From positions 1 to 17,365 of the forward strand of contig CAYQPU010000035.1 in the NCBI GenBank assembly GCA_964419615.1: 17,365 bases of DNA, written 5' to 3'. Shown piece by piece: positions 1 through 14,230 of the stretch. The position numbers were made by a program, and so were the translations under genes. The DNA comes from an uncultured Methanosarcinales archaeon (GTDB taxonomy: Archaea > Nanobdellota > Nanobdellia > Woesearchaeales > JAGVZT01). Within the stretch, counting starts at the first letter, position 1. Each line of letters opens with the position of its first letter. The notes under the pieces are model-generated. The model was not told the origin of the DNA and ran no database searches. It saw nothing but the letters and a program-made list of their open reading frames with translations.

Positions 1-1423
1 TTTTGTCCAGATTGGATTTTCTTTTTAGGATTAAGTAAGCATGGATTGTTTCTTTATTGGCTATTTGATGAGCACAAATGCAAGATTCTTTCACAAGCGG
101 ATGCAGATTAATTTCTTTTTCAATATCTTCAGCATAAATGTTTTCACCAGTTGACAGAACTATCTTAAAGGCATCTCTACCAGTGAAATATAAATTTCTT
201 TTTTTGTCAAATTTACCAACATCACCTGTTTTGTACCAACCATTAACAAAAGATTCGTCTGTTTTAATCTTATCTTTATAATATCCTTTAGTAACATTTG
301 GACCTTTAATATGAATTTCTCCATTAACAATCTTAACTTGAACATTCTTAACTGGTTTTCCTATTGAACCCAATACTCTTTTATTTATTGATTTGGGAGC
401 TGTTGCAACGGCTGTTACTTCAGTTGCACCATAGCCTTCAACAATTTTAATTCCAATAGATTCTAGTTTTTTTGCTGATTCTTTGTCTAGTGTTGCTCCT
501 CCAAGAATGAAAAATCCTAATGAATTTCCAAATTGAGAATGCACTTTGGAGAATATTTTTCTTCTAAGAAAGACAGGGAGTTTTTCTGAAATCTTAAGCA
601 TTTTTTGTAATGTTGCTAGCTTTCCTGCTTCACTTGCTTTTCTTTCAATTGAAGTCATAAAGTTTCTCATAACTTGGGGAACAATAACCAAGTGGGTACA
701 TTTATTATAATAAAGGGCTCTACTTATTGTTAAGCTGTTAATTTTTGGCAGGAAAATTATTTTGCCTCCAACTTTTGTCATTAGCATTAAATTTATCATT
801 TGCTCAAAAACATGACTTAAAGGAAGTATTGACAATGTCTCATAATATCTTAGTTTTGGAAGAATCGGAACAATTGAATCACAATTAGCTAGCACATTTT
901 CATGAGAGATCATTACACCTTTTGGCTCTGCAGTGGTTCCAGATGTAAATACAATCTCAAATAAATCATTTGGTTGCACCAAGCTAGAATCATATGTCTT
1001 TGGACATAATCTTGATAATTCCACAACATCTTCAATGTAGATTACATTTTTAAGCTCAAAATCCCTTATGAATTTAGATATAATAGCAAGTTTAGGTTTT
1101 GTTTTTTTAATGTATTTTTTTATAGTAGTTCTATTTGTTTTCATATCTGTTGGAATAACAATAACTCCAGTAAAAGCACATGCAATTAGAGATATAACAT
1201 ATCCTATTTGATTTGGCGCCTGGATTATTATTTTGTCTCCTTTCTTCAATCCTTTATTATCAAGATAATTAGCAAAACGTTTAGAAAAATCTACTAAGGC
1301 AGAATATGTTACATTTACATTCCTATGGTTTTCCTTGTATTGAAAAGCGATCTTTGAATCATGCTTTTTACATACATATTCGAAGTAATCTCCTATGGTT
1401 CTTGGTTTATTTGTTTTTTTCAT
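1..1423 (-). CDS. Long-chain fatty acyl-AMP/CoA (or acyl-ACP) ligase, AMP-binding/ANL superfamily; partial, C-terminus runs off the left edge
   Basis: Not in the ORF track because its stop lies outside the window. Manual translation from ATG at 1423 is open for 474 codons (MKKTNKPRTIGDYF...IHAYLILKRKSNLDK). ANL motifs: FTSGTTAEPKG P-loop, LPLSHVFE, GGA, EGYGATE, GEIHIKGPNVTKGYY, GWYKTGDVG, YFTGR, GENIYAEDIE. Confidence 0.92.
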   Translation of the reverse strand, partial: MKKTNKPRTIGDYFEYVCKKHDSKIAFQYKENHRNVNVTYSALVDFSKRFANYLDNKGLKKGDKIIIQAPNQIGYVISLIACAFTGVIVIPTDMKTNRTTIKKYIKKTKPKLAIISKFIRDFELKNVIYIEDVVELSRLCPKTYDSSLVQPNDLFEIVFTSGTTAEPKGVMISHENVLANCDSIVPILPKLRYYETLSILPLSHVFEQMINLMLMTKVGGKIIFLPKINSLTISRALYYNKCTHLVIVPQVMRNFMTSIERKASEAGKLATLQKMLKISEKLPVFLRRKIFSKVHSQFGNSLGFFILGGATLDKESAKKLESIGIKIVEGYGATEVTAVATAPKSINKRVLGSIGKPVKNVQVKIVNGEIHIKGPNVTKGYYKDKIKTDESFVNGWYKTGDVGKFDKKRNLYFTGRDAFKIVLSTGENIYAEDIEKEINLHPLVKESCICAHQIANKETIHAYLILKRKSNLDK

Positions 1424-1745
1424 CTGAACTTATGATAGCTATTGCAATTGCATATTCTTTTTCATGTGAAATACTTATTGATATTTGTTGATTAGTCTGA
1501 TTCATGAGACTTGCACAGGGTTCTCCATTTGTCAGATTTAGTATTTCAACATCTTTCCATGAATTTATAATTTTTGAATCTGCTTTTTTTATTGCTTCTT
1601 TACATGCAAATTTTCCTGCAAGTGATTGAATATTTGCACAAGTAATTTCTTTTTCTGTAAAGATTTGTTTTAGAAATTCTGGTTGCATTGCTTTTTTTTC
1701 AAATCTTTTTATATTCACTATGTCTATTCCTGTGCTGATTTTCAT
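1407..1745 (-). CDS. acpS: Holo-[acyl-carrier-protein] synthase (4'-phosphopantetheinyl transferase, AcpS type)
   Basis: 112 aa with GIDIV (GxD Mg-binding motif), LAGKFACKEAIKKA (F/WxxKEAxxKA) and C-terminal SISISHEKEYAIA. Overlaps the acyl ligase start by 17 bp. Confidence 0.93.
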   Translation of the reverse strand: MKISTGIDIVNIKRFEKKAMQPEFLKQIFTEKEITCANIQSLAGKFACKEAIKKADSKIINSWKDVEILNLTNGEPCASLMNQTNQQISISISHEKEYAIAIAIISSDEKNK

Positions 1746-2395
1746 ATGTATACCTTTGTATTATAAACTTTCATCTCTTGCTCAGATAATTTTTTCCTTT
1801 CCCCAGTACCTGGGAAAACTGTGAATTTATAATCACTAATTTTGGGTATTAAGTGTGGGAAAAAGCTTCTTATGTCATGAGGGTATATTGCCGAATATAG
1901 TTTGTTTTCTTGTTTTTTATCTAAATTTTCAACAATGCATCTAAACAAAAACTGGCTACAGTTGGTGGTTTCTGGTTTATAGAAAAGAGTTGGTTTATAT
2001 ATATCCTTAAACTGAGTTGTGGGTATTTTAGTTTTATCTCTTATTAATGTAAATATCACCAAGCCCAGAGTATTTTTTTTTCCATATCTTAGCTTTCTAG
2101 ATGAATACTTTATTAAAGTTTTAAGTAATTTTTTGCTTATATTTGGAAATAGCTGGTCCCTTAACCTATAAATGTGAAAATACTTTTTTCCGCCTGTATA
2201 GTTGTCTATTGAATCAATATTAACACCTTTTCGGTTGCTTGCCTCAATGATTTTATTTTTTCCAATGTATACTGCAGAAGTATTTAAGTAATTACCAGTA
2301 ATAAATCTTGATAGAGTGGACATATATCTTCTTTTTATTCTTGAAATGATAATGTCACTAGGTTTAATAATTAGTTTTTTTCTTAATTGGACCAT
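1742..2395 (-). CDS. Permuted papain-like NlpC/P60 (YiiX/YebB/LRAT-like) protein, expected catalytic His absent
   Basis: Motif order KPSDII...SAVYIG...IIEA...GV...IYR...RYG...TNCSQF...IYPHDI fits circularly permuted NlpC/P60 enzymes. Cys146 is present; Thr39 occupies the His position. ATGA overlap with acpS. Confidence 0.62.
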   Translation of the reverse strand: MVQLRKKLIIKPSDIIISRIKRRYMSTLSRFITGNYLNTSAVYIGKNKIIEASNRKGVNIDSIDNYTGGKKYFHIYRLRDQLFPNISKKLLKTLIKYSSRKLRYGKKNTLGLVIFTLIRDKTKIPTTQFKDIYKPTLFYKPETTNCSQFLFRCIVENLDKKQENKLYSAIYPHDIRSFFPHLIPKISDYKFTVFPGTGERKKLSEQEMKVYNTKVYI

Positions 2396-2419
2396 AGCTA
2401 TTACCAGTTAAGGCTATTG

Positions 2420-2638
2420 TTATTTATTCTTTAGGTCTAAATCAGCTTGGTCAACCAAAGCCTTAAACTCAGACCATTTCTCAACTGGAATTCTAACTCC
2501 TTGTTTTGTAAAGCCAGTGTATTTTTCAGTTGTAATGAATTTTCTTATTGTAAGTCCAGGTTTACCATCATATTCATCAATTCTGACTTTAATAGTGGTT
2601 GATTCTGTTAGTCCGATTTCTCCAATATCTTTTTCCAT
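2420..2638 (-). CDS. PC4/p15 (Sub1/YdbC-like) single-stranded DNA-binding protein
   Basis: 72 aa; IKVRIDEYDGKPGLTIRKF...FTKQGVRIPVEKWSEFK parallels the PC4 core (VsVreFkGk.lidIRey...p.kKGisL..eqW). A GGGGGGA tract precedes the ATG. Confidence 0.8.
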   Translation of the reverse strand: MEKDIGEIGLTESTTIKVRIDEYDGKPGLTIRKFITTEKYTGFTKQGVRIPVEKWSEFKALVDQADLDLKNK

Positions 2639-2697
2639 TTTCCCCCCAATACAATATATATAAATATATTATAAAATATTAAAAATTTAGGAAGTAT

Positions 2698-4443
2698 TTA
2701 TTTCTTTTGGGTTTTGTAAAGTTCTTGTACTTCTTTTATTGAAGTAATGTCTTGCAAGCCCCTGTCTTGTCTTAGTTTAGAAACACTTGGGAATCTTAGA
2801 GCATAGCCTGACTCATAGGTTGGAGATTTTTGAATTTCTTGGTAATCAATTTCGATTATTATTTCAGGCTTTACCTTTACAGTTCGACCAGTCTCACTTG
2901 TGACTAATGGTTTTATTAAATTAGTTATTTCTTGAAAGCTTAGGCCTTCTGATGCTTTTTCTTTTAATCCTGTTGAAGATTTACCAATTGTTAAAAGTTC
3001 ACCTTCATCATTAATGCAGGCAAGTGTGTAAGATGTTAACCATCCCGAGCGTTTTCCTTTACCCCATTCTGCAGCCACAATTACTAAATCCATGCTTTCC
3101 ATTGTGGGTTTTAGTTTTACCATGTAACCAACACGAGCTCCAGGTTTGTAAGGTGCATCAAGTTTCTTCATCATTACTCCTTCTTGTTCGTTTTCTAATG
3201 CTTCTTTGTAAAATTGTTCTACTTGTTTGGGATCAGATGTTACAATTTTCTTTGACAGAACTACCTTTTTGTTTATTTGCTTAGTAATTTCTTCTAAGAT
3301 CTTTCTTCGCTCTTTAAAAGGTGTGTCCAACATCTGTTTATTATTAAAGTATATTAAGTCAAATAGATTCAGTTCAACTGGAAGTTCTTTGGTCATCTGC
3401 TCTATATTGTATTTTCTTCTTATTCTTTGGGATACACTTTGAAATGGAAGATATTTCTTGGTTTCTGGGTTAAACCCTACTGCTTCTCCTTCAATTATAA
3501 AATTATTACCTTTTACATTTTCCTTTACATATTTTACAATGTTTGGGAACTGGTGTGTGACATTTTCCAATCTTCTGGTAAATATCTGGATTCTTTTGCT
3601 TTTGTGTATCTGCATTCTGAATCCATCATATTTGTATTCAACTTGACAGGGTTTACCAACTTTTTCAAAACCATCCTCAATGTTTTCTATTTTTAGAGAT
3701 AACATTACATTAATTGGATTACCAACCACAACTTCAACTTTGTCTAAATGTTTGATCCCTTGTTTTGCTTTTTTGATAACAATAGTTAGATCATTTGTGA
3801 GATCTAGTGCTTTTTGAGTTACATCACAATATTCATTGTATTTTTCTCTATCCTCTACCTTAATATCATTTGACTCGGGATCATAAGTGATGTTCAGTTC
3901 GTCTGCATAATATGCCCACACTATTGCATCTCTAAGCGAGCCTTTGCCCACACCAAATCTCATTTCTTCAAGTACTGTTCGAACAATATATTTTGCTTCA
4001 TTTGGCTTTGAGTTTGTTAACAGCTCAGCAATTAATGAAATTTTTCTGTCTATTGATCCAGATCCTTCTAATTTGGGAAGTTTTTTTAGATTGTTGAATA
4101 CTTTTTCTACTGAAAGATCAGAAGAAAATAGAGTTGATTGGCTTTTTGTTTTGATCATCTCAGATGCAACTAAACCAAGGTCTCCTTTTTGTTTCCATAA
4201 ATTTTCTATGTCACTTGCTGAGTTTCCAGATGCTTTTTGAATTGCTTTTACAACTATTTTTGAAGCTACACCTAGTTTGGAATTATCATACCCGGGAAAT
4301 ACTCTTCCATTTAATAGAAGCATGATTTTACCCAAATCTTTGTTTGTATGTTTTAAAAACTCAGAGATTATTGATGTTTTTTCTAGTCTTTTTGAGGTGT
4401 TTTCTAGCTTTTCATATACTTCAACAAGTTTTGAATATTTCAT
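2698..4443 (-). CDS. lig: ATP-dependent DNA ligase (archaeal type, DBD + NTase + OB)
   Basis: 581 aa; motif I EYKYDGFR (adenylated Lys), III IIEGE, IIIa LFDLIY, IV EGVMMK, V MVKLK, VI ALRFP; N-terminal DNA-binding domain. Confidence 0.97.
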   Translation of the reverse strand: MKYSKLVEVYEKLENTSKRLEKTSIISEFLKHTNKDLGKIMLLLNGRVFPGYDNSKLGVASKIVVKAIQKASGNSASDIENLWKQKGDLGLVASEMIKTKSQSTLFSSDLSVEKVFNNLKKLPKLEGSGSIDRKISLIAELLTNSKPNEAKYIVRTVLEEMRFGVGKGSLRDAIVWAYYADELNITYDPESNDIKVEDREKYNEYCDVTQKALDLTNDLTIVIKKAKQGIKHLDKVEVVVGNPINVMLSLKIENIEDGFEKVGKPCQVEYKYDGFRMQIHKSKRIQIFTRRLENVTHQFPNIVKYVKENVKGNNFIIEGEAVGFNPETKKYLPFQSVSQRIRRKYNIEQMTKELPVELNLFDLIYFNNKQMLDTPFKERRKILEEITKQINKKVVLSKKIVTSDPKQVEQFYKEALENEQEGVMMKKLDAPYKPGARVGYMVKLKPTMESMDLVIVAAEWGKGKRSGWLTSYTLACINDEGELLTIGKSSTGLKEKASEGLSFQEITNLIKPLVTSETGRTVKVKPEIIIEIDYQEIQKSPTYESGYALRFPSVSKLRQDRGLQDITSIKEVQELYKTQKK

Positions 4444-4465
4444 GATTTAGATGATTTTTTGGAGA

Positions 4466-4473
4466 TTTAAAAA
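4466..4473 (-). promoter_or_regulatory. Putative TATA box of lig (TTTTTAAA on minus strand)
   Basis: Lies at -30..-23 from the ATG at 4443, the same spacing as at several other genes in the window. Confidence 0.5.
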
Positions 4474-4495
4474 GGTTTTGAATTGAATAATAAAA

Positions 4496-4503
4496 TTTAT
4501 ATA
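4496..4503 (+). promoter_or_regulatory. Putative TATA box (TTTATATA) with purine-rich upstream BRE-like tract
   Basis: Consensus archaeal TATA box at -30..-23 from the ATG at 4526; divergent from the lig promoter. Confidence 0.6.
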
Positions 4504-4525
4504 CTCCGCAGTAATTACACTTTAT

Positions 4526-4903
4526 ATGAGTAAAAATCAAGATGCAGTGGAAGATTTTTTCACAACTGAAATGATTTATAGAGAAATACATGAGATAGAA
4601 GGCTTGAATCTCAACATACCTATTATAGTTGGTTTTATTTCAATTTCAGAGAAATGCCCAAGATTGGAATATAGAGCAATGATGTATTTTCCCAATTCAG
4701 GTGGATATAATCCAAAATTAGACATAATACCTAAAGTTGAAGCTGAAGGAAAAACAATTGATGATGCTTGCGTAGGTTTAATTGAAAAATTAGTTGAATA
4801 CCACTCATTTCTGGTTGAGGCTGAGAGTTTTGAAACTCAAAATCCAGATTACATAATGCACAAAAAATATCTTGATCTTATCATGGTTAAAGAACAAGAA
4901 TAA
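4526..4903 (+). CDS. Hypothetical protein, possible HicB-like fold
   Basis: 125 aa ORF with its own TATA box. AEGKTIDDACVGLIEKLVEY resembles the HicB/UPF0150 G.T.eEA...l.eai..y motif; the resemblance is weak. Confidence 0.55.
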   Translation: MSKNQDAVEDFFTTEMIYREIHEIEGLNLNIPIIVGFISISEKCPRLEYRAMMYFPNSGGYNPKLDIIPKVEAEGKTIDDACVGLIEKLVEYHSFLVEAESFETQNPDYIMHKKYLDLIMVKEQE

Positions 4904-5029
4904 CACTGGCTCTTATTCACTCCTAAAATATTAAGCTTACAATTTAACTCATTTTTTATTAAGTTAACACAAAGGGAATAAATATTAAAAAACCCAAAAA
5001 TATATATACACCTAGAATCTTGCATAGAT

Positions 5030-8000
5030 TTGAAAAAGAGTGTTAACATGACAAAGATTAACAAAATTGTGATGCATGGATTCAAATCTTTTGCCAAAAG
5101 AACTGAGCTTGTTTTTGGTGATCATTTTAATTCTGTTCTAGGTCCAAATGGATCAGGAAAATCAAATGTTCTTGATGCTATTTGTTTTGTTTTGGGAAGA
5201 TTGTCGTCTAAGAGTCTTAGGGCAGAAAAATCTGCAAATTTAATATATAATGGTGGGAAGAAAAAGAGCCCTTCAAAAAAAGCAGAAGTTTCTATTTATT
5301 TTGATAATTCGAATAAAACTTTTCCAAGTAATGAAAGTGAGATTAAGATTTCTAGGATTGTTAAAAAGACCGGACAATCTGTTTACAAGATTAATGATAA
5401 GACTTCAACAAGACAGCAGATTCTTGATTTAATGTCAGTTGCTAAGATAGATCCCGATGGATATAATATTATTTTGCAGGGAGATATTGTTAGGTTTGTT
5501 GAGATGTCAAGTGTTGAAAGAAGACAGGTATTAGAAGAGATATCAGGTATTTCTATTTATCAGGATAAGAAAAATAAAGCTATGAATGAGCTAGATAAGG
5601 TAGAAGATAGTTTAAAAGAAGCTGAGATTATTTTAACTGAAAGAGAGACTTATCTTAAAGAGCTTAGAAAGGAGAGAAACCAAGCTGCAAAATATAAAGA
5701 TATGAAAGATAAGATTGATAGCAGTAAAGCAACTGTGCTTCATAATCAAATTGAAGAGAAAAAAGAAGATAAAGAGAAGTTTGAGAATAGGAAAGAAAAA
5801 GATGAAGTCAAGCTTGAAAAGATTGGAAAGGAGATTGTTGATGTCAAAGATAAGATTCAAGGTGCAAGGAATGGTGTTTATGATCTGACTTCTGAGATTG
5901 AAAAAAAGGGTGAAAAAGAGCAAGTCCAGATTATGAAGAATCTTGAAGGTCTTAGAGTTGAGATAGCAACTAATAAAACTAAAATTGAGAATTTGCAGCA
6001 AGAGCTTGGAAAGATTGTTGTTAGAAGAGAACAATTAAAGACTGACAGCAAGGATATTTCTTCAAAAAATAGTGGTATTGAAAATAGGACTCAGGAACTT
6101 GAAAAGAAAAAAGTTCAAATTGACAGAGAATTAAATGATATTTTGAAAACTATTGATAATTTTAAGCAGAAGAGAAATTTGGGTGAGATTCCTCAAATTG
6201 AGGCTGAAGTTTCAGAGATTGACAATAATGTTGATGAATTACAAAAGAGTGTTCAAGAGCTTAGGGAAACTCAGCAGAATTTGCTTAGAGAAAAAGACAG
6301 AGTAGAGTACAAGATCTCAACTTTGGATGATCGTATTGATAAAGTTAAGGAAGTAGAAATTGAGCATAAAAAAGAGCTTGATGTTTTAAAGGATAAGAAA
6401 TCATCATTTAAGAAAATTACAGTGGAACTAAATAAGAACCTTGCAGATGATTCTAGTTTTGCAGCGCAAATTGGTAAGAAAAGACAAGACCTTGTGGATG
6501 TTGAACAAGAGTTGTCAAGACTTAAGACCAGATCAGTTGGTATTAGGGAAAGAATGTCTGCCAATATTGCTGTAAAAAAGATTATGGAGCAAAAGAAAAG
6601 CATTAAAGGTATTTATGGTACTGTTGGTGAGCTTGGAACTGTTGGTACAAAGTATTCTATGGCTTTGGAAATTGCAGCTGGAAGTAAAGTTAATAATGTT
6701 GTTGTTAAAGATGATAAGGTTGCAGCTAAGTGTATTGGCTACCTAAAAAAGAATAAACTTGGAAGAGCGACTTTTTTACCAATCAACAAAATCAGGAAAA
6801 TGAGCACTAATCCAGATGTTAAGAGATTAGCTAAATCAAGAGGTTGCAGTGGTATTGCGGTTGACCTTGTTGATTTTGATTCAAAGTTTAAAGTTATTTT
6901 TAATTATTTATTTTCAAATACTCTTGTAGTTGATGATATTAATGTTGCACGAAGGATTGGGATTGGCAGTGCAAGGATGGTCACATTAGAAGGTGATCTT
7001 GCTGAACGATCTGGTGCTATGACTGGTGGTTTTAGAAAAAGAAAATCAGGACTTGGTTTCCAGGAAAAAGAAACTTCTAAAGGTATTAATGAGCTTGAAT
7101 CTCAAGTTTTGGAATTACAAAATGTTGTAAGGGTCCTTTCTAAGAGAAGATTGGAGAATGAACAAGATATTATTGATCTTAGAAAGGAAAAAGCCAGCCT
7201 TGAAGGAGAAATTATTAAGATTGAAAAGAGTCTTCATCTTGAAAAAGGAGATGTAGGAGTTAATAAAAAGGAGAAGACTTTGCTAAGAGAAGAATTAAAA
7301 CAATTAACTAGAACTATTGAACAAAAGAATAAAGATATTCAAAAGTTTAATGGTGAATTTGCAAAGTTAAAAGCTAGTAAGCAAGTATTAAGAAGCAAGA
7401 TTGGAGATCTACAAAATCCGGAACTGCTTGCTGAGCTTAATACTTTTGAGGACAAGAAGAATGATCTTAAGGAAGAATTGCTTCAAACAGAGCACGAGAT
7501 TAAGTCAGCACATATGCAACTAAAGGAATTGCTTGGTCCTGAACTTGAAAAGATACAAAAGATCATTAAACAGCTTGATAAGGAAGAAGTTAGTTTTGAG
7601 AAAGATCTGAAAAAGACTAAGGAGTTTGTTAAAAAGCAAGAAGAGGAGCTAAAGCATAAAGAGAAGAAACAAAAGGCATTTTATTCTAAATTTAAGGAGC
7701 TGTTTAATGAGAGAGACAAGCTAAATAAGAAGCAAAGAGATCTTGAGGTAAAAAAGGCCAGGCTTGAGGATCAAAGCAGAGACATTGAGATGAGAATCAA
7801 TAATATTGCTTTGAAAAATGCTGCTGTGACTGCTGAGTTAAGTGGTCTTGAAAAAGAGTATGAACAATTCCATGGTGTGCCAATACTGCGACAAAGAAAT
7901 ATTTCAGCGATTAAGGCTGAGATCACTCGGTTTGAAAATTTGGTTTTAGCTATGGGTAATGTAAATCTTAAAGCTTTGGAGATTTATGATAGTGTTCATA

Positions 8001-8542
8001 AGGAGTATGAGCATTTGCTAAAGAAAAAAGATTTACTTGAAAAAGAAAAAGAAGATGTTATGAAATTAATGGATGAGATCGAAGGTAGAAAAGCTGAGTT
8101 ATTTATGAAGACTTTTGATAGTGTTAATGAACACTTTATGCAGATTTTTAATCAACTGACTGCTAAAGGTAGGGCTCATTTAGCATTAGACAATCCAAAG
8201 GATCCATTTGATGGCGGTGTTAGGATTAGAGTTAAGATTACTGGAAGAAGGTTTATGGATATCAGAAGCTTGTCTGGTGGTGAGAAGACTTTGACTGCTT
8301 TGGCTTTGATCTTCTCTGTTCAAGAACATGATCCTGCTTCATTTTATGTTTTAGATGAAGTTGATGCTGCACTTGATAAGCACAATTCTGAGAAGTTAGC
8401 TAAGCTTGTTAGAAAGTATTCTGATCATGCTCAATATATTATTGTGACCCATAATGATGCTATTATTTCTGAAGCAGATAATCTTTATGGTGTCTCAATG
8501 GATGAACATTCTATTAGTAAGGTTGTTAGTTTGAAGATTTAG
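5030..8542 (+). CDS. smc: Chromosome segregation protein SMC (start TTG 5030 or ATG 5048)
   Basis: Walker A GPNGSGKS, Q-loop IILQGD, two long coiled coils around a hinge (GIYG...GRATFLP...GDL...GAMTGG), signature LSGGEK, Walker B/D-loop YVLDEVDAALD, H-loop IVTH. Confidence 0.98.
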   Translation: MKKSVNMTKINKIVMHGFKSFAKRTELVFGDHFNSVLGPNGSGKSNVLDAICFVLGRLSSKSLRAEKSANLIYNGGKKKSPSKKAEVSIYFDNSNKTFPSNESEIKISRIVKKTGQSVYKINDKTSTRQQILDLMSVAKIDPDGYNIILQGDIVRFVEMSSVERRQVLEEISGISIYQDKKNKAMNELDKVEDSLKEAEIILTERETYLKELRKERNQAAKYKDMKDKIDSSKATVLHNQIEEKKEDKEKFENRKEKDEVKLEKIGKEIVDVKDKIQGARNGVYDLTSEIEKKGEKEQVQIMKNLEGLRVEIATNKTKIENLQQELGKIVVRREQLKTDSKDISSKNSGIENRTQELEKKKVQIDRELNDILKTIDNFKQKRNLGEIPQIEAEVSEIDNNVDELQKSVQELRETQQNLLREKDRVEYKISTLDDRIDKVKEVEIEHKKELDVLKDKKSSFKKITVELNKNLADDSSFAAQIGKKRQDLVDVEQELSRLKTRSVGIRERMSANIAVKKIMEQKKSIKGIYGTVGELGTVGTKYSMALEIAAGSKVNNVVVKDDKVAAKCIGYLKKNKLGRATFLPINKIRKMSTNPDVKRLAKSRGCSGIAVDLVDFDSKFKVIFNYLFSNTLVVDDINVARRIGIGSARMVTLEGDLAERSGAMTGGFRKRKSGLGFQEKETSKGINELESQVLELQNVVRVLSKRRLENEQDIIDLRKEKASLEGEIIKIEKSLHLEKGDVGVNKKEKTLLREELKQLTRTIEQKNKDIQKFNGEFAKLKASKQVLRSKIGDLQNPELLAELNTFEDKKNDLKEELLQTEHEIKSAHMQLKELLGPELEKIQKIIKQLDKEEVSFEKDLKKTKEFVKKQEEELKHKEKKQKAFYSKFKELFNERDKLNKKQRDLEVKKARLEDQSRDIEMRINNIALKNAAVTAELSGLEKEYEQFHGVPILRQRNISAIKAEITRFENLVLAMGNVNLKALEIYDSVHKEYEHLLKKKDLLEKEKEDVMKLMDEIEGRKAELFMKTFDSVNEHFMQIFNQLTAKGRAHLALDNPKDPFDGGVRIRVKITGRRFMDIRSLSGGEKTLTALALIFSVQEHDPASFYVLDEVDAALDKHNSEKLAKLVRKYSDHAQYIIVTHNDAIISEADNLYGVSMDEHSISKVVSLKI

Positions 8543-9109
8543 TTAACTAGAATCCAATTTAACAGGATTTTGATTATAGTATCCCAATGCAATTTTAACC
8601 TCTCCCAAAAAAGGATATGTTCTTACACCAATGTAAGTTCCATCTGGTGAGTTTTGAAAATCAAGAGATTCCCAGGAAAGGGTTGAACCATTTTTTGGGA
8701 TATAATCAATTACTGATTCTTGTAAGTTTTCTGGAGATATTACTACAAAGTTATGGCCATGTTGTGCTTTGCTAAAAGCTAAAGCTTTTGCTACCTGGTA
8801 TAAAAATTCAAGATTTGCACCTTCTCTTCTAAACATTAAATTAGTGCAATCCAAATACATTTCACCATGAATGGTTAAATGATCAAATGATCTTCCTGGA
8901 ACCCTCTCACAATGAAGATATGCAGAATCTTCAATTCTATCTTCAAGCTCATAATTAATCCCAGTTTGTTTTAGTATTTTCTCCGCTTTTCTAATTTCCT
9001 TACTAGTCATTTCTGTTAGTTTATATAAATGAGGCATTCTATCTTCTAGGTGGTCTGTCATAGGATTTTTTCCTATTAACAACACTGGTAGATCTTTTCC
9101 TTTGTTCAC
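8543..9109 (-). CDS. Hypothetical protein (ORFan); GTG start, alternative ATG at 9061
   Basis: 188-codon ORF filling the gap between smc and the GT4 gene; no recognisable motif. Confidence 0.6.
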   Translation of the reverse strand: MNKGKDLPVLLIGKNPMTDHLEDRMPHLYKLTEMTSKEIRKAEKILKQTGINYELEDRIEDSAYLHCERVPGRSFDHLTIHGEMYLDCTNLMFRREGANLEFLYQVAKALAFSKAQHGHNFVVISPENLQESVIDYIPKNGSTLSWESLDFQNSPDGTYIGVRTYPFLGEVKIALGYYNQNPVKLDSS

Positions 9110-9207
9110 GATAGTATTGTAAGAATTACTTCAATAATAAAAAGATTGCTACTTCAAATAGGAAATATTAAAAATAACTTTTTTATCAGACTGCTGTGAC
9201 AAAAACT

Positions 9208-10332
9208 TCACATTTTTTCTAGAATCTCAACTATCTGTTCTGAAGTTGTTTTCCAGTTGAAGTTTTCTTCTACTGTTTTTCTGCCATTTAGTGATAGAAG
9301 TTTTCTTAGTTTTTTACTTTTGATTAATTTTTCAAGATGTGTTGTTAGTCCTTCTACATCTTTTTTACTAAAGATTAATCCATTGTATCCATCACTGATT
9401 GCTGTTACTGCTAAACCTACTGGCGTTGTTATGACTGGTATTCCTGATGACATTGCTTCTAGTGTAGATAGGCCTGTTGTTTCTGTTAATGATGGCATTA
9501 CAAAGATGTCCATTGCACCATAATAGTCTGTTACGTTTTCTACAAAACCAGTTACCTTAATGTTATGTTTTCTTGAGTATTTTTTATAGTGTTCACCATC
9601 ACCGACTAAGACTAATAGTGCATTTTTGTCATTGAGATTTTGAAATGCATCAACCAATGTATGAATATCCTTTTCGTCACTTAGTCTACCGCAGTATCCT
9701 ATGACTGTTTTTTCTGGATCTATTCCAAGTTTCTTTTTTGCAATTCTTTTAGATCTTACTGGTTGGAATTTTTCCAGATCAACTCCCAGTTTTACTGTTT
9801 GTTTTTTTGCCTTTATTCCAGCCTTGTTTAATACATCTATTAATGAATCAGATGGAACCATGATTAAGTCACACATATTACATAAGAATCTCATTTGGAT
9901 TTTGACAAATTCGGATGTAAGCTTTTGAAACCATTTCGGTCCTCCTATGATTAAAGATAATTGTTCCCAACCGATTTGATGAAAGTACATAGCAACTGGT
10001 TTTCCGAGTAGTTTTGCGAGTATTATGGATGATGCTCCAAGATATGGCAAAGATTGTATAAAAACAAGGTCTGATTTCTTGACATCTTGCATTAAGTCGT
10101 GTGTTGGTATTGGTGGATGATAGTCACAGCCAGCATCAATTTTTAAGAATTTGACAATTGGGTAGAATTTAATTGAAGCTCCAAAAAAATGTATGAAGTG
10201 CCCACCATAGTTTGGAGCAAGGACTTTTACTTGGAACTTGCCAACTAAGTCTGGAACCATTTTTTCTGAGAATCTCATTACCCCATCTACTTTTGGGTAG
10301 AATGTGTCCAGTACATAAAGTATTTTTTTCAT
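9208..10332 (-). CDS. Glycosyltransferase family 4 (GT-B, retaining)
   Basis: N-terminal DTFYPKVDGV, GYCGRLSDEKD donor-binding motif, and PSLTETTGLSTLEAMSSGIPVI (EX7E). Confidence 0.93.
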   Translation of the reverse strand: MKKILYVLDTFYPKVDGVMRFSEKMVPDLVGKFQVKVLAPNYGGHFIHFFGASIKFYPIVKFLKIDAGCDYHPPIPTHDLMQDVKKSDLVFIQSLPYLGASSIILAKLLGKPVAMYFHQIGWEQLSLIIGGPKWFQKLTSEFVKIQMRFLCNMCDLIMVPSDSLIDVLNKAGIKAKKQTVKLGVDLEKFQPVRSKRIAKKKLGIDPEKTVIGYCGRLSDEKDIHTLVDAFQNLNDKNALLVLVGDGEHYKKYSRKHNIKVTGFVENVTDYYGAMDIFVMPSLTETTGLSTLEAMSSGIPVITTPVGLAVTAISDGYNGLIFSKKDVEGLTTHLEKLIKSKKLRKLLSLNGRKTVEENFNWKTTSEQIVEILEKM

Positions 10333-10976
10333 CGTATTTTAAAAAACCTCTCTGCAAACTTTACATGATGTGAATGCCCATGAACTGCAGCCTTTGCATA
10401 TATGTTTCCATACAAAATGATTAATGACGACCACTGGCTGGCAAAGCACTTTAAGGCATTTATTTTTTTTGCAAATGTACTTGATATATCAACATATAAT
10501 CTAGGGTATTCTATTCTGTGAAAATCAAGCAGGTTCCAAACATCAAACATATAGACTTCTGTTTTAAATTTGTTTTCATCAACAATGTCCAAAACAATTT
10601 TGGTTACTGCTTTGTGGTCTCGATGTGGATCAAGTAAATTATGAGTAAAGATTTTTGTTGGTTTTAATCTTTTAATTGTTGTTGCAAGTTTTTGTTTTAT
10701 CTTATTTTTTTCTGTCTCTTCTGCAAATTTTCCTTCTTCCAGTCCGTAATATAAAGATCGTTTATATCCCAATACTTCTCTTGCAGCTTCTGCTTCTTTT
10801 TTCCTCATCTTGGTTGATACATGTTTTTTTAGCCAATGATGACTTAATTCACCATATGAGAATCTAATAACAGATACATTCTTGCCTTCTTCTATGTATT
10901 TTGCTATTGTCCCACCCACTCCTAAAACAGCATCATCTGGATGCGCAGCAATAACAAGTATGTTTTCTTTAGGCAT
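10329..10976 (-). CDS. PIG-L/LmbE family N-acetylglucosaminyl deacetylase (MshB/BshB-like); likely start ATG 10976
   Basis: ILVIAAHPDDAVLGVGGTI (HxDD metal motif), RKKEAEAAREVLG, THNLLDPHRDH (HxDH), VDIS...KKINALKCFASQ, AERF. ATGA overlap with the GT4 gene. Confidence 0.92.
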   Translation of the reverse strand: MPKENILVIAAHPDDAVLGVGGTIAKYIEEGKNVSVIRFSYGELSHHWLKKHVSTKMRKKEAEAAREVLGYKRSLYYGLEEGKFAEETEKNKIKQKLATTIKRLKPTKIFTHNLLDPHRDHKAVTKIVLDIVDENKFKTEVYMFDVWNLLDFHRIEYPRLYVDISSTFAKKINALKCFASQWSSLIILYGNIYAKAAVHGHSHHVKFAERFFKIR

Positions 10977-11027
10977 ATTAAATATCAATCTAGAAATGGT
11001 TAATATATGTTTTGGTTAATAATAAAA

Positions 11028-11035
11028 TTATTAAA
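11028..11035 (+). promoter_or_regulatory. Putative TATA box (TTATTAAA) of the inositol monophosphatase gene
   Basis: At -30..-23 from the ATG at 11058. A divergent TATATTAA (11007..11000, minus strand) sits -31..-24 from the PIG-L ATG. Confidence 0.5.
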
Positions 11036-11057
11036 GAACAATACTATAATTTTTAAT

Positions 11058-11843
11058 ATGTACAAAAAAGAGCTTAAAACCGCAATAAAAGCTGCTAAAG
11101 AGGCAGGTAAATTTCTGTTAGAACATAGGAAAGATGTTGAATTACTTAAAACAAAGAGCACTTTTAAGGATATTGTGACTGATGCTGATCTTGGTTCTGA
11201 GGATATTATTGTTGATATGATTAAACAGGAGTTTCCTGATGATAATTTTTTGACTGAGGAAGCAGGGGGAGAGATTTCCAAAGAGAGGTTATGGATTATT
11301 GATCCATTGGATGGGACTAGAAATTATGCTAATGGATTGTTTTATTTTTCTGTTGTTGTGGCTTTTTATGATAATGGAACTAAAGTTGGAGTTGTTTATG
11401 CGCCTGTGCTTGGTGAGTTGTTTTATGCAACAGAAGGAAAAGGGGCTTTTTTGAATGATGAAAAGCTTGTTATGAAGAATCCAGATCAAGCTTTAGCTGA
11501 TTGTGTTATTAACACGGGTTTTTGGTATTATAAGGATGATGAGCTTGACAGTTTGTTAAAGATTTTCAAAAAAGTATTGAGCAAAGCTACAGATGTTGTT
11601 AGATATGGTTCAGCAGCTCTAGATTTGTGTAATGTTGCTGCAGGTAGATTAGGTGGTTTTTTTGAACCTGGACTTAAGCCTTGGGATGTTGCTGCTGGAT
11701 CTCTTATTATAACAGAAGCTGGAGGAGCGGTTTCTGGATATGCTAAAGAGCTTGAGGTTCTAGATCCAAGAGAAGGGATAATTGGATCCAAAAACAAACA
11801 GATTATGGACGAGTTAAAAATAATTATTAATTCTGGTTTATAA
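11058..11843 (+). CDS. suhB: Inositol monophosphatase family protein (SuhB-like); likely start ATG 11058, not 11007
   Basis: VTDAD, FLTEE, WIIDPLDGTRNY, GSAALDLC.VAAG and WDVAAG motifs are all intact. Confidence 0.93.
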   Translation: MYKKELKTAIKAAKEAGKFLLEHRKDVELLKTKSTFKDIVTDADLGSEDIIVDMIKQEFPDDNFLTEEAGGEISKERLWIIDPLDGTRNYANGLFYFSVVVAFYDNGTKVGVVYAPVLGELFYATEGKGAFLNDEKLVMKNPDQALADCVINTGFWYYKDDELDSLLKIFKKVLSKATDVVRYGSAALDLCNVAAGRLGGFFEPGLKPWDVAAGSLIITEAGGAVSGYAKELEVLDPREGIIGSKNKQIMDELKIIINSGL

Positions 11844-12010
11844 AGCATTCCCAAGTTATCTTTATAAAAACTAATTACGACTAGAATCAATTACATGAGT
11901 AAATGCATATTACTTATTATAAAAGAATTATTGAGAGTACTATAATTGCCATATAATTTAATTAAGCAATCATCTTTATTTAAGCTTTTTTTTCAGATTA
12001 TTTATAAAAG

Positions 12011-12017
12011 TAAAAAA
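12011..12017 (-). terminator. Possible oligo-T terminator downstream of tRNA-Phe
   Basis: The minus strand reads TTTTTT then ACTTTT immediately after the discriminator base; oligo-T tracts act as archaeal terminators. Confidence 0.35.
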
Positions 12018-12032
12018 GTGGGACTGCTGGGA

Positions 12033-12181
12033 CTTTCATAACCTTTTACACAATTGACCAAAGGCTGCACATTTATGTGCATGAGTGGTGATTATCTTGT
12101 GTTAAGATACATCACCATATGTGACTGAAAGTCACATTACTTTTGGTCAAGCTTTTGCGCGCAAAGCGCGGAAAAGATTGA
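12033..12181 (-). other. 149-nt tRNA intron at T-loop position 59/60
   Basis: BHB motif: exon UUCA (54-57) pairs with intron UGAA (12038-12035); 3-nt bulges AA^U and AG^U; flanked by the T-stem and an intron basal stem AAUCUUUU/AAAAGGUU (one C-A mismatch next to the bulge). Confidence 0.88.
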
Positions 12182-12203
12182 TTTGAACCCAGGACACCAC
12201 GGT

Positions 12204-12234
12204 TTCCTCGCTTCAAGCTTTTTTGCTTTAAGCT
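12204..12234 (-). other. 31-nt tRNA intron at canonical position 37/38, relaxed BHB
   Basis: AGCTTAAAGCAAAAAAGCTTGAAGCGAGGAA; removing it restores the 7-nt anticodon loop CUGAAGA. Confidence 0.88.
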
Positions 12235-12295
12235 CTTCAGCCGTGTGCTCTCCCAGTCTGAGCTACAGTCCCACAATGATACTGGATTAAAAAAC

Positions 12296-12303
12296 TATAT
12301 TTA
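12296..12303 (-). promoter_or_regulatory. Putative TATA box of the tRNA gene (TAAATATA)
   Basis: At -31..-24 from mature G1 (12272). Confidence 0.5.
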
Positions 12304-12314
12304 TTACTTTCGGT

Positions 12315-12773
12315 CTATTCAACAGTTTCTTCTTCAATTGCCAGATCTTCTTGTTCAACTCCAATATCTTCTACTGGAACTGGTTTTTCAGGATCTAGTT
12401 TTTTTTGTTCTGGCTCTGCTGGAGCTTCCTTTGGTTTTTCTTCTTCAGCCGGAGCTTCCTCGGCTGCTGGCTCTGGCGCTTCACCTGCACCAACAACATT
12501 AAGAGTACCATTTCTACCAGTTGAAACTTGCATTTCTCCTTGGTATTCTTTGGCCCAGCCTTCTTTTAGCTCAATTTTGTCTCCCATGTTTACTTTGTCA
12601 ACGTCTTCGTTCCAAAGGCTCATCTTAGCACTGCCTGTTTCATCTTTGACTGTGACTGTACAGACTCTGCCAGTTTTGCCGAATTTTGAGAATTCTCTTG
12701 TATCTCCTTTTTCAACAACATCTGCTACTAAGATGTCAACTGCTGTATTTGGTTTTAATTCTCCTATTTTCAT
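12315..12773 (-). CDS. ssb: Single-OB-fold ssDNA-binding protein (crenarchaeal SSB/RPA-like) with acidic Pro/Ala/Glu-rich tail
   Basis: KIGELKPN...DETG...LW...W..Y.G.MQV closely parallels Sulfolobus-type SSB. Stacking aromatics W54, W73, Y77; the last ~55 aa are acidic and low-complexity. Confidence 0.87.
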   Translation of the reverse strand: MKIGELKPNTAVDILVADVVEKGDTREFSKFGKTGRVCTVTVKDETGSAKMSLWNEDVDKVNMGDKIELKEGWAKEYQGEMQVSTGRNGTLNVVGAGEAPEPAAEEAPAEEEKPKEAPAEPEQKKLDPEKPVPVEDIGVEQEDLAIEEETVE

Positions 12774-14230
12774 TTTTTTACCTCCTTAAACATAATTTCT
12801 TTGTTTAATAATTTCTTAAGCGTTTTGTTAAGATCATCAATTTTGATTCTTGCTTGCTCTGTTGTGTCCCTATCCCTGATTGTGACTGAATTATCCTTTA
12901 GTGTGTCATAGTCAATTGTTACACAATAAGGTGTTCCAACTTCATCTTGTCTTGCATATCTTCTACCTATGCTTCCTCCTTTATCATAAAAACTGTTAAA
13001 ACAGGTTTTGATTGCACTATATACTTCTTTTGCTTTTTCTCCAACTCCGTCTTTGTTAACTAACGGAAAAACAGCAACTTTAGTTGGTGCAAGTTTTGGA
13101 TCAAGCTTTAATACAATATTTCCTCTTTCCTTGTCATCACAATAAGCATCACTTATGAAAACCAAAAATGCTCTGTCAACGCCTTGTGAAGGTTCTGCTA
13201 CAACATAAGGTACAACTTTGTTGTTATCTTCTTGTATGAATAATGAAAAATCTTTTTTTGAAAATTTCATGTGTTCTTTTAAGTCAAAGTCAGTTCGGTT
13301 CGCCATTCCTTGCAGCTCTTTCCATCCAAATGAGAAATTGTATTCAAGATCCCAAGTATCAAGTGCATAATGACTTTTTTCTGTCTGCACATGCTGCCGG
13401 ATTCTGAAGTTATCTGGTGCTGCGCCTAAACCTACAAACCATTTATGTTCAATTGCCAGCCAGTAGGCATGCCATTGGGTTTGAATTATTTTCTTGTCAA
13501 GAGCTTGTTTAATTGTCATTTTTTGCCCATCTTCTTTTTTGGATTGCATTTCATCTGACAAGATAATTATCTCATGATCCATTACTTCCTTTATAAACGG
13601 ACAGTTGTCAACATTTTTTGGATGGATAAAATATTCAATTTCCATTTGTTCAAATTCTCTGCATCTAAATAAGAAGTTTCTTGGTGAGATTTCGTTTCTA
13701 AATGCTTTTCCAATTTGAGCTATACCAAATGGAAGTTTTAATCTTGAGGTTTCAACTATCTGTTTAAAATCAACAAACATTATTTGAGCTGTTTCAGGTC
13801 TTAAGTAAGCGGTCATGGACTCTTCCTTTATTGGGCCAACCTGCGTTGTGAACATTGGGTTAAACTCCCCTTTGTCTTCATAATCTCCACCACATTTTTC
13901 ACACTTTGCTTTTCCTACTTCAAATTTGTCAAGCTTGTTTTTCAAGCCACATTTTTTGCATACTACTGCAACATCAATAAAGCTTCCTACATGTCCTGAT
14001 GCTTCCCACACTTTTGGATGAGTGATTATACTTCCATCTATCCCAACAATGTCATCTCTATCCTGAACATGAAATTTCCACCAAGAATCCTTAATATTTT
14101 TCTTAAGTTCTGTTCCAAGCGGCCCGTAATCAAAGAATCCGGCATATCCCCCATATATCTCAGAAGAAGGAAAGACTAGCCCTTTCTTTTTACAAAATGT
14201 TGCCAGATCCTCTATACTAATTGTTGACAT
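12770..14230 (-). CDS. glyS: Glycine--tRNA ligase, alpha2 (homodimeric) type
   Basis: YLRPETAQ, QIGKAFRNEISPRNFLFRCREFEQMEIEYF, SHYA, GWKELQGMANRTDFDL, EPSQGVDR, and the anticodon-binding domain IGRRYARQDEVGTPYCVTID. A CxxC...CxxC insertion is present. Confidence 0.97.
   Translation of the reverse strand: MSTISIEDLATFCKKKGLVFPSSEIYGGYAGFFDYGPLGTELKKNIKDSWWKFHVQDRDDIVGIDGSIITHPKVWEASGHVGSFIDVAVVCKKCGLKNKLDKFEVGKAKCEKCGGDYEDKGEFNPMFTTQVGPIKEESMTAYLRPETAQIMFVDFKQIVETSRLKLPFGIAQIGKAFRNEISPRNFLFRCREFEQMEIEYFIHPKNVDNCPFIKEVMDHEIIILSDEMQSKKEDGQKMTIKQALDKKIIQTQWHAYWLAIEHKWFVGLGAAPDNFRIRQHVQTEKSHYALDTWDLEYNFSFGWKELQGMANRTDFDLKEHMKFSKKDFSLFIQEDNNKVVPYVVAEPSQGVDRAFLVFISDAYCDDKERGNIVLKLDPKLAPTKVAVFPLVNKDGVGEKAKEVYSAIKTCFNSFYDKGGSIGRRYARQDEVGTPYCVTIDYDTLKDNSVTIRDRDTTEQARIKIDDLNKTLKKLLNKEIMFKEVKK
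12780..12785 (-). promoter_or_regulatory. Shine-Dalgarno GGAGGT for ssb, inside the glyS 3' end
   Basis: The minus strand reads AAGGAGGTAAAAAAATG; the ssb ATG overlaps the glyS TGA. Confidence 0.7.

Follow-up and report, generated by a model that had tools for sequence, protein, structure and literature searches.

At the left end of the archaeal contig analysed here, a gene for an AcpS-type 4'-phosphopantetheinyl transferase overlaps the start of a gene for a fusion protein that joins an ANL-family ligase, an acyl carrier protein (ACP) domain and a PlsC-type lysophospholipid acyltransferase (LPLAT) domain. The stretch of 17,365 nucleotides (the window) is the entire contig C35 of a 64-contig, 1.48-Mb genome, G000, whose completeness is 99.4%. 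On balance, we think it probable that the locus is a self-contained, Aas-like module for acyl activation and transfer, of bacterial origin, which a lipid-auxotrophic DPANN archaeon would use for fatty-acid salvage and lysolipid acylation. That the acid is a fatty acid and the acceptor a lipid is something we infer from the sequence. An earlier note on this DNA had proposed bacterial-type machinery for acid activation, carrier loading and acyl transfer; the ACP and LPLAT domains that it predicted were found, and this core reading appears to be right. Three genes open the window:

2-1423, minus strand: 5' part of the fusion gene (residues 1-474 of 827), with an AMP-binding domain (PF00501, 224 bits)
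1407-1745, minus strand: AcpS-type 4'-phosphopantetheinyl transferase, 112 aa (PF01648 and TIGR00556)
1742-2395, minus strand: C92-like permuted NlpC/P60 protein, 217 aa (Pfam Peptidase_C92 below the cut-off; assigned by profile and fold)

The fusion protein and its AcpS

The earlier description of three overlapping minus-strand genes, C92-like, AcpS and ANL, was borne out by the open reading frames (ORFs) and by both overlaps: an ATGA at 1742-1745 joins the C92-like and AcpS genes, and 17 bp at 1407-1423 join the AcpS and ligase genes. Because position 1 is the end of the contig, the ligase ORF is incomplete in the window. The remainder of the gene was located at G000:C22:27853-28915(-). There, the right end of contig C22 carries a 5'-open frame of 355 residues that comprises the ANL C-terminal subdomain (PRTRTLK), an ACP (DLNIDSL) and a PlsC-type acyltransferase (NHVGLLD and PEG). 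The last 7 bases of C22 are the first 7 of C35, and the frames agree across this overlap. What settles the join is a pair of proteins from other public assemblies: P0001 (734 aa) is 100% identical and spans the C22-C35 junction, and P0137 (827 aa) equals the joined translation from the first through the last residue. Both partners expected to the left of position 1, an ACP with a serine motif and a PlsC/LPLAT acyltransferase, were thus present, fused to the ligase. The break between the contigs falls, with its 7-bp overlap, within an intact gene that other assemblies span; no repeat that would explain it was noticed.

The joined gene encodes an 827-residue protein with the order ANL, ACP, PlsC-type LPLAT. 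The ANL motifs TSGTTAEPKG, GYGATE, YKTGD and PRTRTLK start at residues 160, 330, 397 and 501, respectively, and the A10 lysine is K507, the final residue of PRTRTLK. The carrier serine of the ACP is Ser561, within DLNIDSL. The LPLAT domain (PF01553, 38.4 bits) contains NHVGLLD at 659-665, in which the HX4D motif is formed by His660 and Asp665, and PEG at 733. In an alignment of 25 homologues, TSGTT..PKG, the A10 lysine, the carrier serine, NH....D and PEG were invariant. Only three Pfam domains were found across the 827 residues, and these include no reductase, NAD-binding, condensation or thioesterase domain. The carrier domain matched ACP models of the fatty-acid synthase (FAS) type best, rather than peptidyl carrier protein (PCP) models. 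For the LPLAT domain, the corresponding part of the Aas models PRK06814 and PRK08633 gave the best match, with PlsC ranked behind it, and the ANL part also matched these two models.

The window AcpS scored 46 bits against PF01648 (cut-off 25) and 72.7 bits against TIGR00556 (cut-off 45.35); against the acpS equivalog TIGR00516 it reached 58.5 bits, just under the cut-off of 59.8. The G.D, KEA and S..H motifs are conserved in 12 archaeal AcpS copies. Judged from these alignments, all catalytic motifs of AcpS and of the fusion are intact. AcpS is the sole phosphopantetheinyl transferase found in G000. Since the genome contains a single carrier domain, AcpS has one visible client, the ACP domain encoded by the overlapping gene, and its predicted job is the priming of Ser561.

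In the mechanism that we propose, AcpS would first move phosphopantetheine from CoA onto Ser561. The ANL domain would then adenylate a scavenged (fatty) acid and load it as a thioester onto the protein's own ACP domain. Finally, the PlsC-type domain, using His660 and Asp665, would acylate a hydroxyl group on a membrane lysolipid or glycerol-phosphate lipid. A cell so equipped would need no free ACP, acyl-CoA or fatty-acid synthesis in order to rebuild or remodel lipids from other organisms. In five related archaea, a transporter of the major facilitator superfamily (MFS) encoded at the locus probably imports or flips the acceptor, by analogy with the service of LplT to Aas. In G000, the position of the MFS gene is occupied by the C92-like protein, which lacks the catalytic His.

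We considered whether the locus could be an artefact, whether through bacterial contamination, through a chimeric join or as a transferred module that is no longer active. The family to which the fusion belongs is mainly bacterial, the two contigs overlap by 7 bp only, and the GC content of the module, 30.3% against a genome mean of 33.5%, lies at the low edge of the genome range. Against this stand the two other assemblies that span the junction identically, the intact motifs, and the housekeeping genes carried by both contigs. Those of the window include an ATP-dependent DNA ligase, replication factor C (RFC) and SMC, all three archaeal-type, together with an OB-fold protein resembling single-stranded DNA-binding (SSB) proteins and a class II aminoacyl-tRNA synthetase; C22 also bears PGK, GAPDH and glycogen synthase. 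The tetranucleotide composition of the module correlates with that of the rest of the genome with r=0.964, whereas random chunks of the same size average 0.956, and this match makes contamination unlikely. Related archaea, moreover, carry the AcpS-fusion pair inside contigs of 220-356 kb. The host genome is archaeal: archaeal SSU and LSU rRNA genes were found in G000. Overall, an artefact is very improbable. Contamination was rejected on the spanned junction, the archaeal genes and the matching composition, and the flank, for which the earlier note had listed a chimeric bacterial assembly as a refuting possibility, lies on archaeal contigs both here and in relatives.

Distribution and origin of the module

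To place the module among related archaea, we used 401 genomes of the phylum; the matches listed all belong to the same order, except a few for AcpS or ACP that share only the class. With the ACP-LPLAT tail as the query, the full-length fusion was found in 15 of the 401 genomes, G000 included, one of which (G234) has it split across two contigs. Three further matches were weaker or variant. AcpS is present in all 15 fusion genomes, and its gene directly adjoins the fusion in 13 of 14 archaeal loci that carry the full-length fusion or the variant of G222, often overlapping it and on either side. The G104 contig breaks off immediately upstream of the fusion, and the AcpS gene of that genome is on a different contig.

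A conserved MFS transporter gene of about 400 residues, with 41-72% mutual identity, belongs to the gene run of five archaeal loci. One unpublished genome, G244, contributes both to the 15 fusion genomes and to the five MFS loci; without it, the counts are 14 and four. An identification of the MFS partner as LplT was tried and is unsupported, there being no match to the NCBIfam LplT models. Other neighbours vary and include CorA, PRPP synthetase, a JAB protein, a methyltransferase and LplA. At one locus (L033, G369:C53), an alpha/beta hydrolase gene (Hydrolase_4, 4467-5345) starts 9 bp past the fusion in the run AcpS-MFS-fusion-hydrolase, an arrangement seen once. The Hydrolase_4 family includes lysophospholipases and monoglyceride lipases.

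ACP-dependent genes extend beyond the fusion. AcpS was found in 33 of the 401 genomes and a carrier domain in 30. In 18 of them (among which are G243, G352, G135, G148, G101, G068 and G181), AcpS occurs without the tri-domain fusion, and in at least seven of these 18 the contig with AcpS also encodes, within a few kb, a free-standing ACP of about 80-100 residues. This arrangement is a second type of ACP module within the order. The unpublished genomes G243, G322 and G360 count only among those with AcpS alone. In G222, a 1035-residue fusion of an ANL, a PP-binding domain and an HMG-CoA-reductase-like domain replaces the tri-domain form and could, as its domains suggest, convert an acyl thioester to an alcohol. 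The lipid gene cluster around it (L043, G222:C8:2000-20000, about 2379-13174) encodes a fatty-acid desaturase, AcpS, an acyltransferase resembling glycerol-3-phosphate acyltransferases (PF01553 and GPAT_C), a LarA_N-like protein, an HAD hydrolase, the ANL-ACP-HMG-CoA-reductase-like fusion, a diacylglycerol kinase and a zinc-dependent alcohol dehydrogenase.

The numbers of genomes with AcpS and with a carrier, together with the variety of types, indicate that ACP-dependent chemistry is a recurrent minority trait of this order. The view that archaea generally lack the ACP/AcpS system therefore needs qualifying. ACP and AcpS in archaea have been reported as rare and horizontally acquired (PMC3533463), and homologues of PlsC and PlsY, Fab genes and bacterial-type lipid genes have been noted in DPANN archaea, including Woesearchaeota (PMC6431249, PMC10936187). 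The archaeal genomes examined in a 2026 survey of LPLATs yielded none (PMC13500770). A lipid study of bacteria of the Candidate Phyla Radiation (CPR) described lysolipid-rich membranes, while its screen of CPR genomes turned up no enzymes that use ACP (PMC7242380). Our own literature search, which took in only a minority of subscription journals, found no description of an AcpS and ANL-ACP-LPLAT module in archaea.

The tri-domain family is large and mainly bacterial, with members in Chloroflexota, Acidobacteriota, Bacteroidota, Planctomycetia, Saccharibacteria, Uhrbacteria and Dependentiae that bear automatic names only (Atlas). Proteins of this bacterial 'AMP-binding protein' family (about 815-860 residues; PF00501, PF00550 and PF01553) have the same architecture, length and invariant motifs as the window fusion, at 27-44% identity. 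By these marks, the window fusion is a member of this uncharacterised family, and it differs in having an archaeal host. The AcpS gene adjoins the fusion in G000 and likewise in two Saccharimonadales, in Uhrbacteria and Dependentiae, in one metagenome-assembled genome (MAG) of Spirochaetia, in one MAG labelled Acidimicrobiaceae and in the Woesearchaeota locus L068. By contrast, none of the Chloroflexota and Acidobacteriota loci has AcpS beside the fusion. The bacterial loci with an adjacent AcpS come mainly from lineages with reduced genomes.

Phylogenies of the fusion were inferred under LG+G4 (86 rows) and LG+C20 PMSF (52 rows). In both trees, the archaeal copies split into at least three groups. 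The G000 protein pairs with P0003, its nearest relative at about 40-44% identity (SH-aLRT 96). The two fall within a group that also contains a Ktedonobacteria sequence (support 99) and adjoin a clade of Saccharibacteria (support 98), at a great distance from the other archaeal copies. An approximately unbiased (AU) test (LG+G4, 33 rows) rejected a single archaeal clade, with a delta lnL of 159.9 and p ~1e-68. With the archaeal copies spread over more than one clade, the gene must have been transferred at least twice; many tree rows have skewed composition, so the precise donor is not settled. The L068 copy, from a record titled Candidatus Woesearchaeota, groups with the copies of the relatives, which supports the assignment of the host to Woesearchaeota-type DPANN archaea.

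Lipid genes, candidate substrates and known systems

To set the module in its metabolic context, we drew up an inventory of lipid and carrier genes in G000. The genome encodes one ANL protein, one phosphopantetheinyl transferase, one PP-binding (carrier) domain and one clear PF01553 domain. At this completeness, it gave no match to ketoacyl synthase (PF00109) and contains no free-standing ACP or other PP-binding protein. A search for geranylgeranylglyceryl phosphate synthase (GGGPS, PcrB) returned nothing above the cut-off in G000, and neither a UbiA-family prenyltransferase nor PlsY was matched there. The head-group genes are the following:

G000:C53:189-2037: CarS and an adjoining CDP-alcohol phosphatidyltransferase
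G000:C11:29466-29969 and G000:C49:4437-4724: two further CDP-alcohol phosphatidyltransferases

CarS was matched by PF01864 at 105.7 bits; the bacterial CdsA model PF01148 reached 29 bits at the same locus, over a short stretch only. The best matches of the CDP-alcohol phosphatidyltransferases were to PgsA and ClsA-type models. By this inventory, G000 has head-group chemistry without core-lipid synthesis. A cell with no synthesis of acyl chains or core lipids, in which lipid activation and head-group change are nevertheless possible, fits lipid salvage. A reading of the genes as part of a bacterial type II system (FAS-II) for making fatty acids was rejected, there being neither a ketoacyl synthase nor a free ACP in G000. 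A 341-residue ORF at G000:C11:20288-21313 (L007:1084-2109) scored 22.6 bits against PF01553, where the threshold is 23, over the first 22 profile positions only and with no NCBIfam match; it could be a second, very divergent acyltransferase.

The same inventory bears on the alternative that the fusion is a de novo acyltransferase for glycerol 3-phosphate or lysophosphatidic acid, similar to PlsB or PlsC, that makes bacterial-type diacyl phospholipids from scavenged fatty acids and so gives the cell a largely ester-lipid membrane. The HX4D and PEG motifs of the PlsC-type domain would suit this activity, as would the PgsA and ClsA-type matches and the bacterial-type lipid genes reported in Woesearchaeota. 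However, the genome offers a single clear LPLAT domain and no PlsY, and two acylations by one domain have no precedent here. In addition, the cytidylyltransferase locus matches CarS rather than CdsA, and the module is patchy among close kin. We regard this alternative as improbable.

Among known systems, Aas of E. coli and other Gram-negatives (2-acyl-GPE acyltransferase and acyl-ACP synthetase, EC 2.3.1.40 and 6.2.1.20), with its partner LplT, comes closest (PMC11416262). As in Aas, an ANL part and a PlsC-type LPLAT share one polypeptide, and NCBIfam Aas models are among the best matches of both parts. The fusion is also predicted to transfer the acyl group via ACP-bound phosphopantetheine, and the MFS gene in the operon of the five related archaea recalls the pairing of Aas with LplT. 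The differences are substantial. The fusion has a built-in ACP, whereas Aas borrows free ACP from fatty-acid synthesis; a dedicated AcpS is encoded alongside it; and it is found in an archaeon that lacks fatty-acid synthesis. Its different domain order, built-in ACP and profile scores mean that the fusion is not an Aas orthologue.

Other known enzymes resemble parts of the system. ElbD of Myxococcus xanthus, a ligase-ACP-reductase-AGPAT protein of ether-lipid synthesis (PMC9131029), likewise has an N-terminal ligase, an internal ACP and a C-terminal AGPAT-type acyltransferase in one protein. Compared with ElbD as described, the fusion is much shorter and has no reductase domain, so its predicted product is an ester rather than an ether precursor. 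The acyl-ACP synthetases AasS and AasC of Vibrio and Chlamydia (PMC12086093, PMC5693948) are ANL enzymes that load exogenous fatty acids on ACP for phospholipid synthesis. Unlike the fusion, they stand alone and use the free ACP of the cell and separate acyltransferases.

Several points weigh against a role in fatty-acid salvage and lysolipid acylation. Relative to Aas, in which the LPLAT precedes the ANL part, the domain order is reversed with the ANL first, and the fusion scores only 128.8 bits against 1221 (PRK08633) and 111.5 against 1349 (PRK06814), far below the equivalog cut-offs. The MFS partner matched none of the LplT models in NCBIfam, and tblastn found no homologue of it in G000. 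None of the four closest sampled genomes, of the same genus or family, has the fusion, and the module is thus dispensable for the lineage. The retention of CarS indicates archaeal-type lipids, which makes the natural acceptor uncertain. In the literature, as far as it was covered, no characterised ANL-ACP-LPLAT enzyme was found. Lastly, the substrate specificity of the ANL domain is not established from its sequence: its best NCBIfam matches (long-chain fatty-acid-CoA ligase, MenE, malonyl-CoA synthase and DltA) were at similar levels, all far below the cut-offs, and its best matches in the PDB were adenylation domains of nonribosomal peptide synthetases (NRPS).

These ANL matches, to which amino-acid adenylation models can be added, also favour a different view of the fusion, as an NRPS-like loading and offloading enzyme. 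It would acylate something other than a phospholipid, perhaps a glycolipid or lipid-linked glycan, perhaps a surface polymer or small molecule. Acids other than fatty acids could be used, and the outcome would be decoration of the cell surface instead of membrane-lipid salvage. The acceptors of PlsC-family domains include lyso-ornithine lipids, among others, and glycosylation genes (GT4, PIG-L and inositol monophosphatase) lie nearby in the window. The domains of the fusion point elsewhere: its carrier is of the FAS type and not a PCP, its LPLAT is most similar to that of Aas, and the condensation, thioesterase or reductase domains of an NRPS-like enzyme are missing. Its homologues carry annotations as long-chain acyl-CoA synthetases, and the partner in the relatives is an MFS transporter, as in the case of Aas and LplT. 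Taken together, the evidence makes an NRPS-like enzyme unlikely, and lysolipid acylation by an Aas-like module remains the reading that we prefer.

The C92-like protein, the wider locus and implications

The earlier note had treated the three overlapping genes as one unit and had assigned the first of them to the permuted NlpC/P60 proteins. As to the fold, this assignment is supported. The window protein scored 24.3 bits against Pfam Peptidase_C92, under the cut-off of 27, whereas P0132, a more distant relative in the alignment, passed at 31.7 bits. The family is rare, with 14 matches in 1.84 billion representatives, and its profile matches PDB 3kw0, the C92 peptidase of B. cereus, with E=7e-8. 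An AlphaFold model based on a 12-sequence alignment had a pLDDT of 86.8, compared with 31.8 for the single sequence. The best Foldseek matches of this model were 3kw0, YiiX (2if6) and PLAAT/HRASLS proteins (PLAAT3), with high probability and TM scores of 0.5-0.6; the best E value, ~1e-3, fell just short of the 0.001 line. A permuted NlpC/P60 (papain-like) fold is thus supported by profile and model. The nucleophile Cys146 (TNCSQ), near the C-terminus, is invariant in the family. The catalytic His is kept in 11 of 11 homologues that cover the site and is replaced by Thr in the window copy (LNTSAVYIG). The protein accordingly shares the permuted fold and the C-terminal nucleophile Cys with YaeF/YiiX (Peptidase_C92) and LRAT/PLAAT proteins (PMC3142127), and differs from them as a rare offshoot family, below the Pfam cut-off, with Thr for the catalytic His.

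If the three window genes were a functional trio, the C92-like protein, as a phospholipase or acyltransferase, would supply the ligase with a fatty acid or lysolipid. Its gene overlaps that of AcpS by ATGA, and its fold resembles both the PLAAT phospholipases and YiiX, whose crystal structure has a fatty acid bound in the pocket (PMC3142127). However, at none of the 14 other archaeal loci was a C92-like gene found next to AcpS and the fusion, and the only genome with both families, G367, has them on different contigs. Scans of metagenomes for the context of the C92-like family found nothing. The loss of the catalytic His also speaks against enzymatic supply. The conserved unit is therefore not the trio but the AcpS-fusion pair, to which an MFS gene may be added. 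A functional trio seems rather unlikely to us, and we are equally doubtful that the C92-like protein belongs to the acylation system at all; it may bind a fatty acid or lipid, or be an unrelated neighbour.

Upstream of the C92-like gene lie two further features:

2420-2638, minus strand: PC4-like small single-stranded DNA-binding protein, 72 residues (PF02229 PC4, 26.8 bits)
2639-2697, minus strand: candidate promoter, an A/T-rich intergenic stretch that precedes the PC4-like ATG and contains a TATA-like tract and a G-run

Between the PC4-like gene and the ATG of the C92-like gene at 2395 lie only 24 bp, which contain no A/T-rich box. A common transcript probably starts with the PC4-like gene and continues through the C92-like, AcpS and fusion genes, and the A/T-rich stretch at 2639-2697 may be the promoter of this four-gene run. 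The PC4-like gene has no functional tie to the acylation module. Further into the window, a GT4 glycosyltransferase gene (9208-10332, minus strand) is overlapped by a gene for a PIG-L family de-N-acetylase of the GlcNAc-PI type (10329-10988, minus strand), followed by a divergent inositol monophosphatase gene (11007-11843, plus strand). The set (9208-11843) resembles those for the synthesis of glucosaminyl-inositol (lipid).

How ultrasmall symbionts without lipid synthesis, such as DPANN archaea and CPR bacteria, supply their membranes is an open question. The two-gene module described here, a priming enzyme and an enzyme that would activate, carry and transfer, offers a testable route for the reuse of lipids from other organisms. 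It predicts lysolipid acylation that starts from free fatty acids, is ATP-dependent and depends on Ser561. The module occurs in archaea that lack fatty-acid synthesis and, likewise linked to AcpS, in Saccharimonadales, Uhrbacteria and Dependentiae. A bolder extension, which we put forward as speculation with little expectation that it holds, is that the LPLAT may esterify scavenged fatty acids onto archaeal-type or mixed acceptors, for example a monoalkyl (lyso-archaeol-like) glycerol phosphate. The archaeon, with CarS and CDP-alcohol transferases yet no synthesis of core lipids, would then assemble its membranes, whether hybrid ether/ester or fully ester, from the lipids of bacterial and archaeal neighbours, and the pair would be a portable lipid-salvage cassette that moves among CPR bacteria, Dependentiae and DPANN archaea. 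If the Aas-like role is true, ester lipids would be remodelled inside an archaeon, which bears on the 'lipid divide', and a function would be assigned to a large, unnamed family of bacterial proteins.

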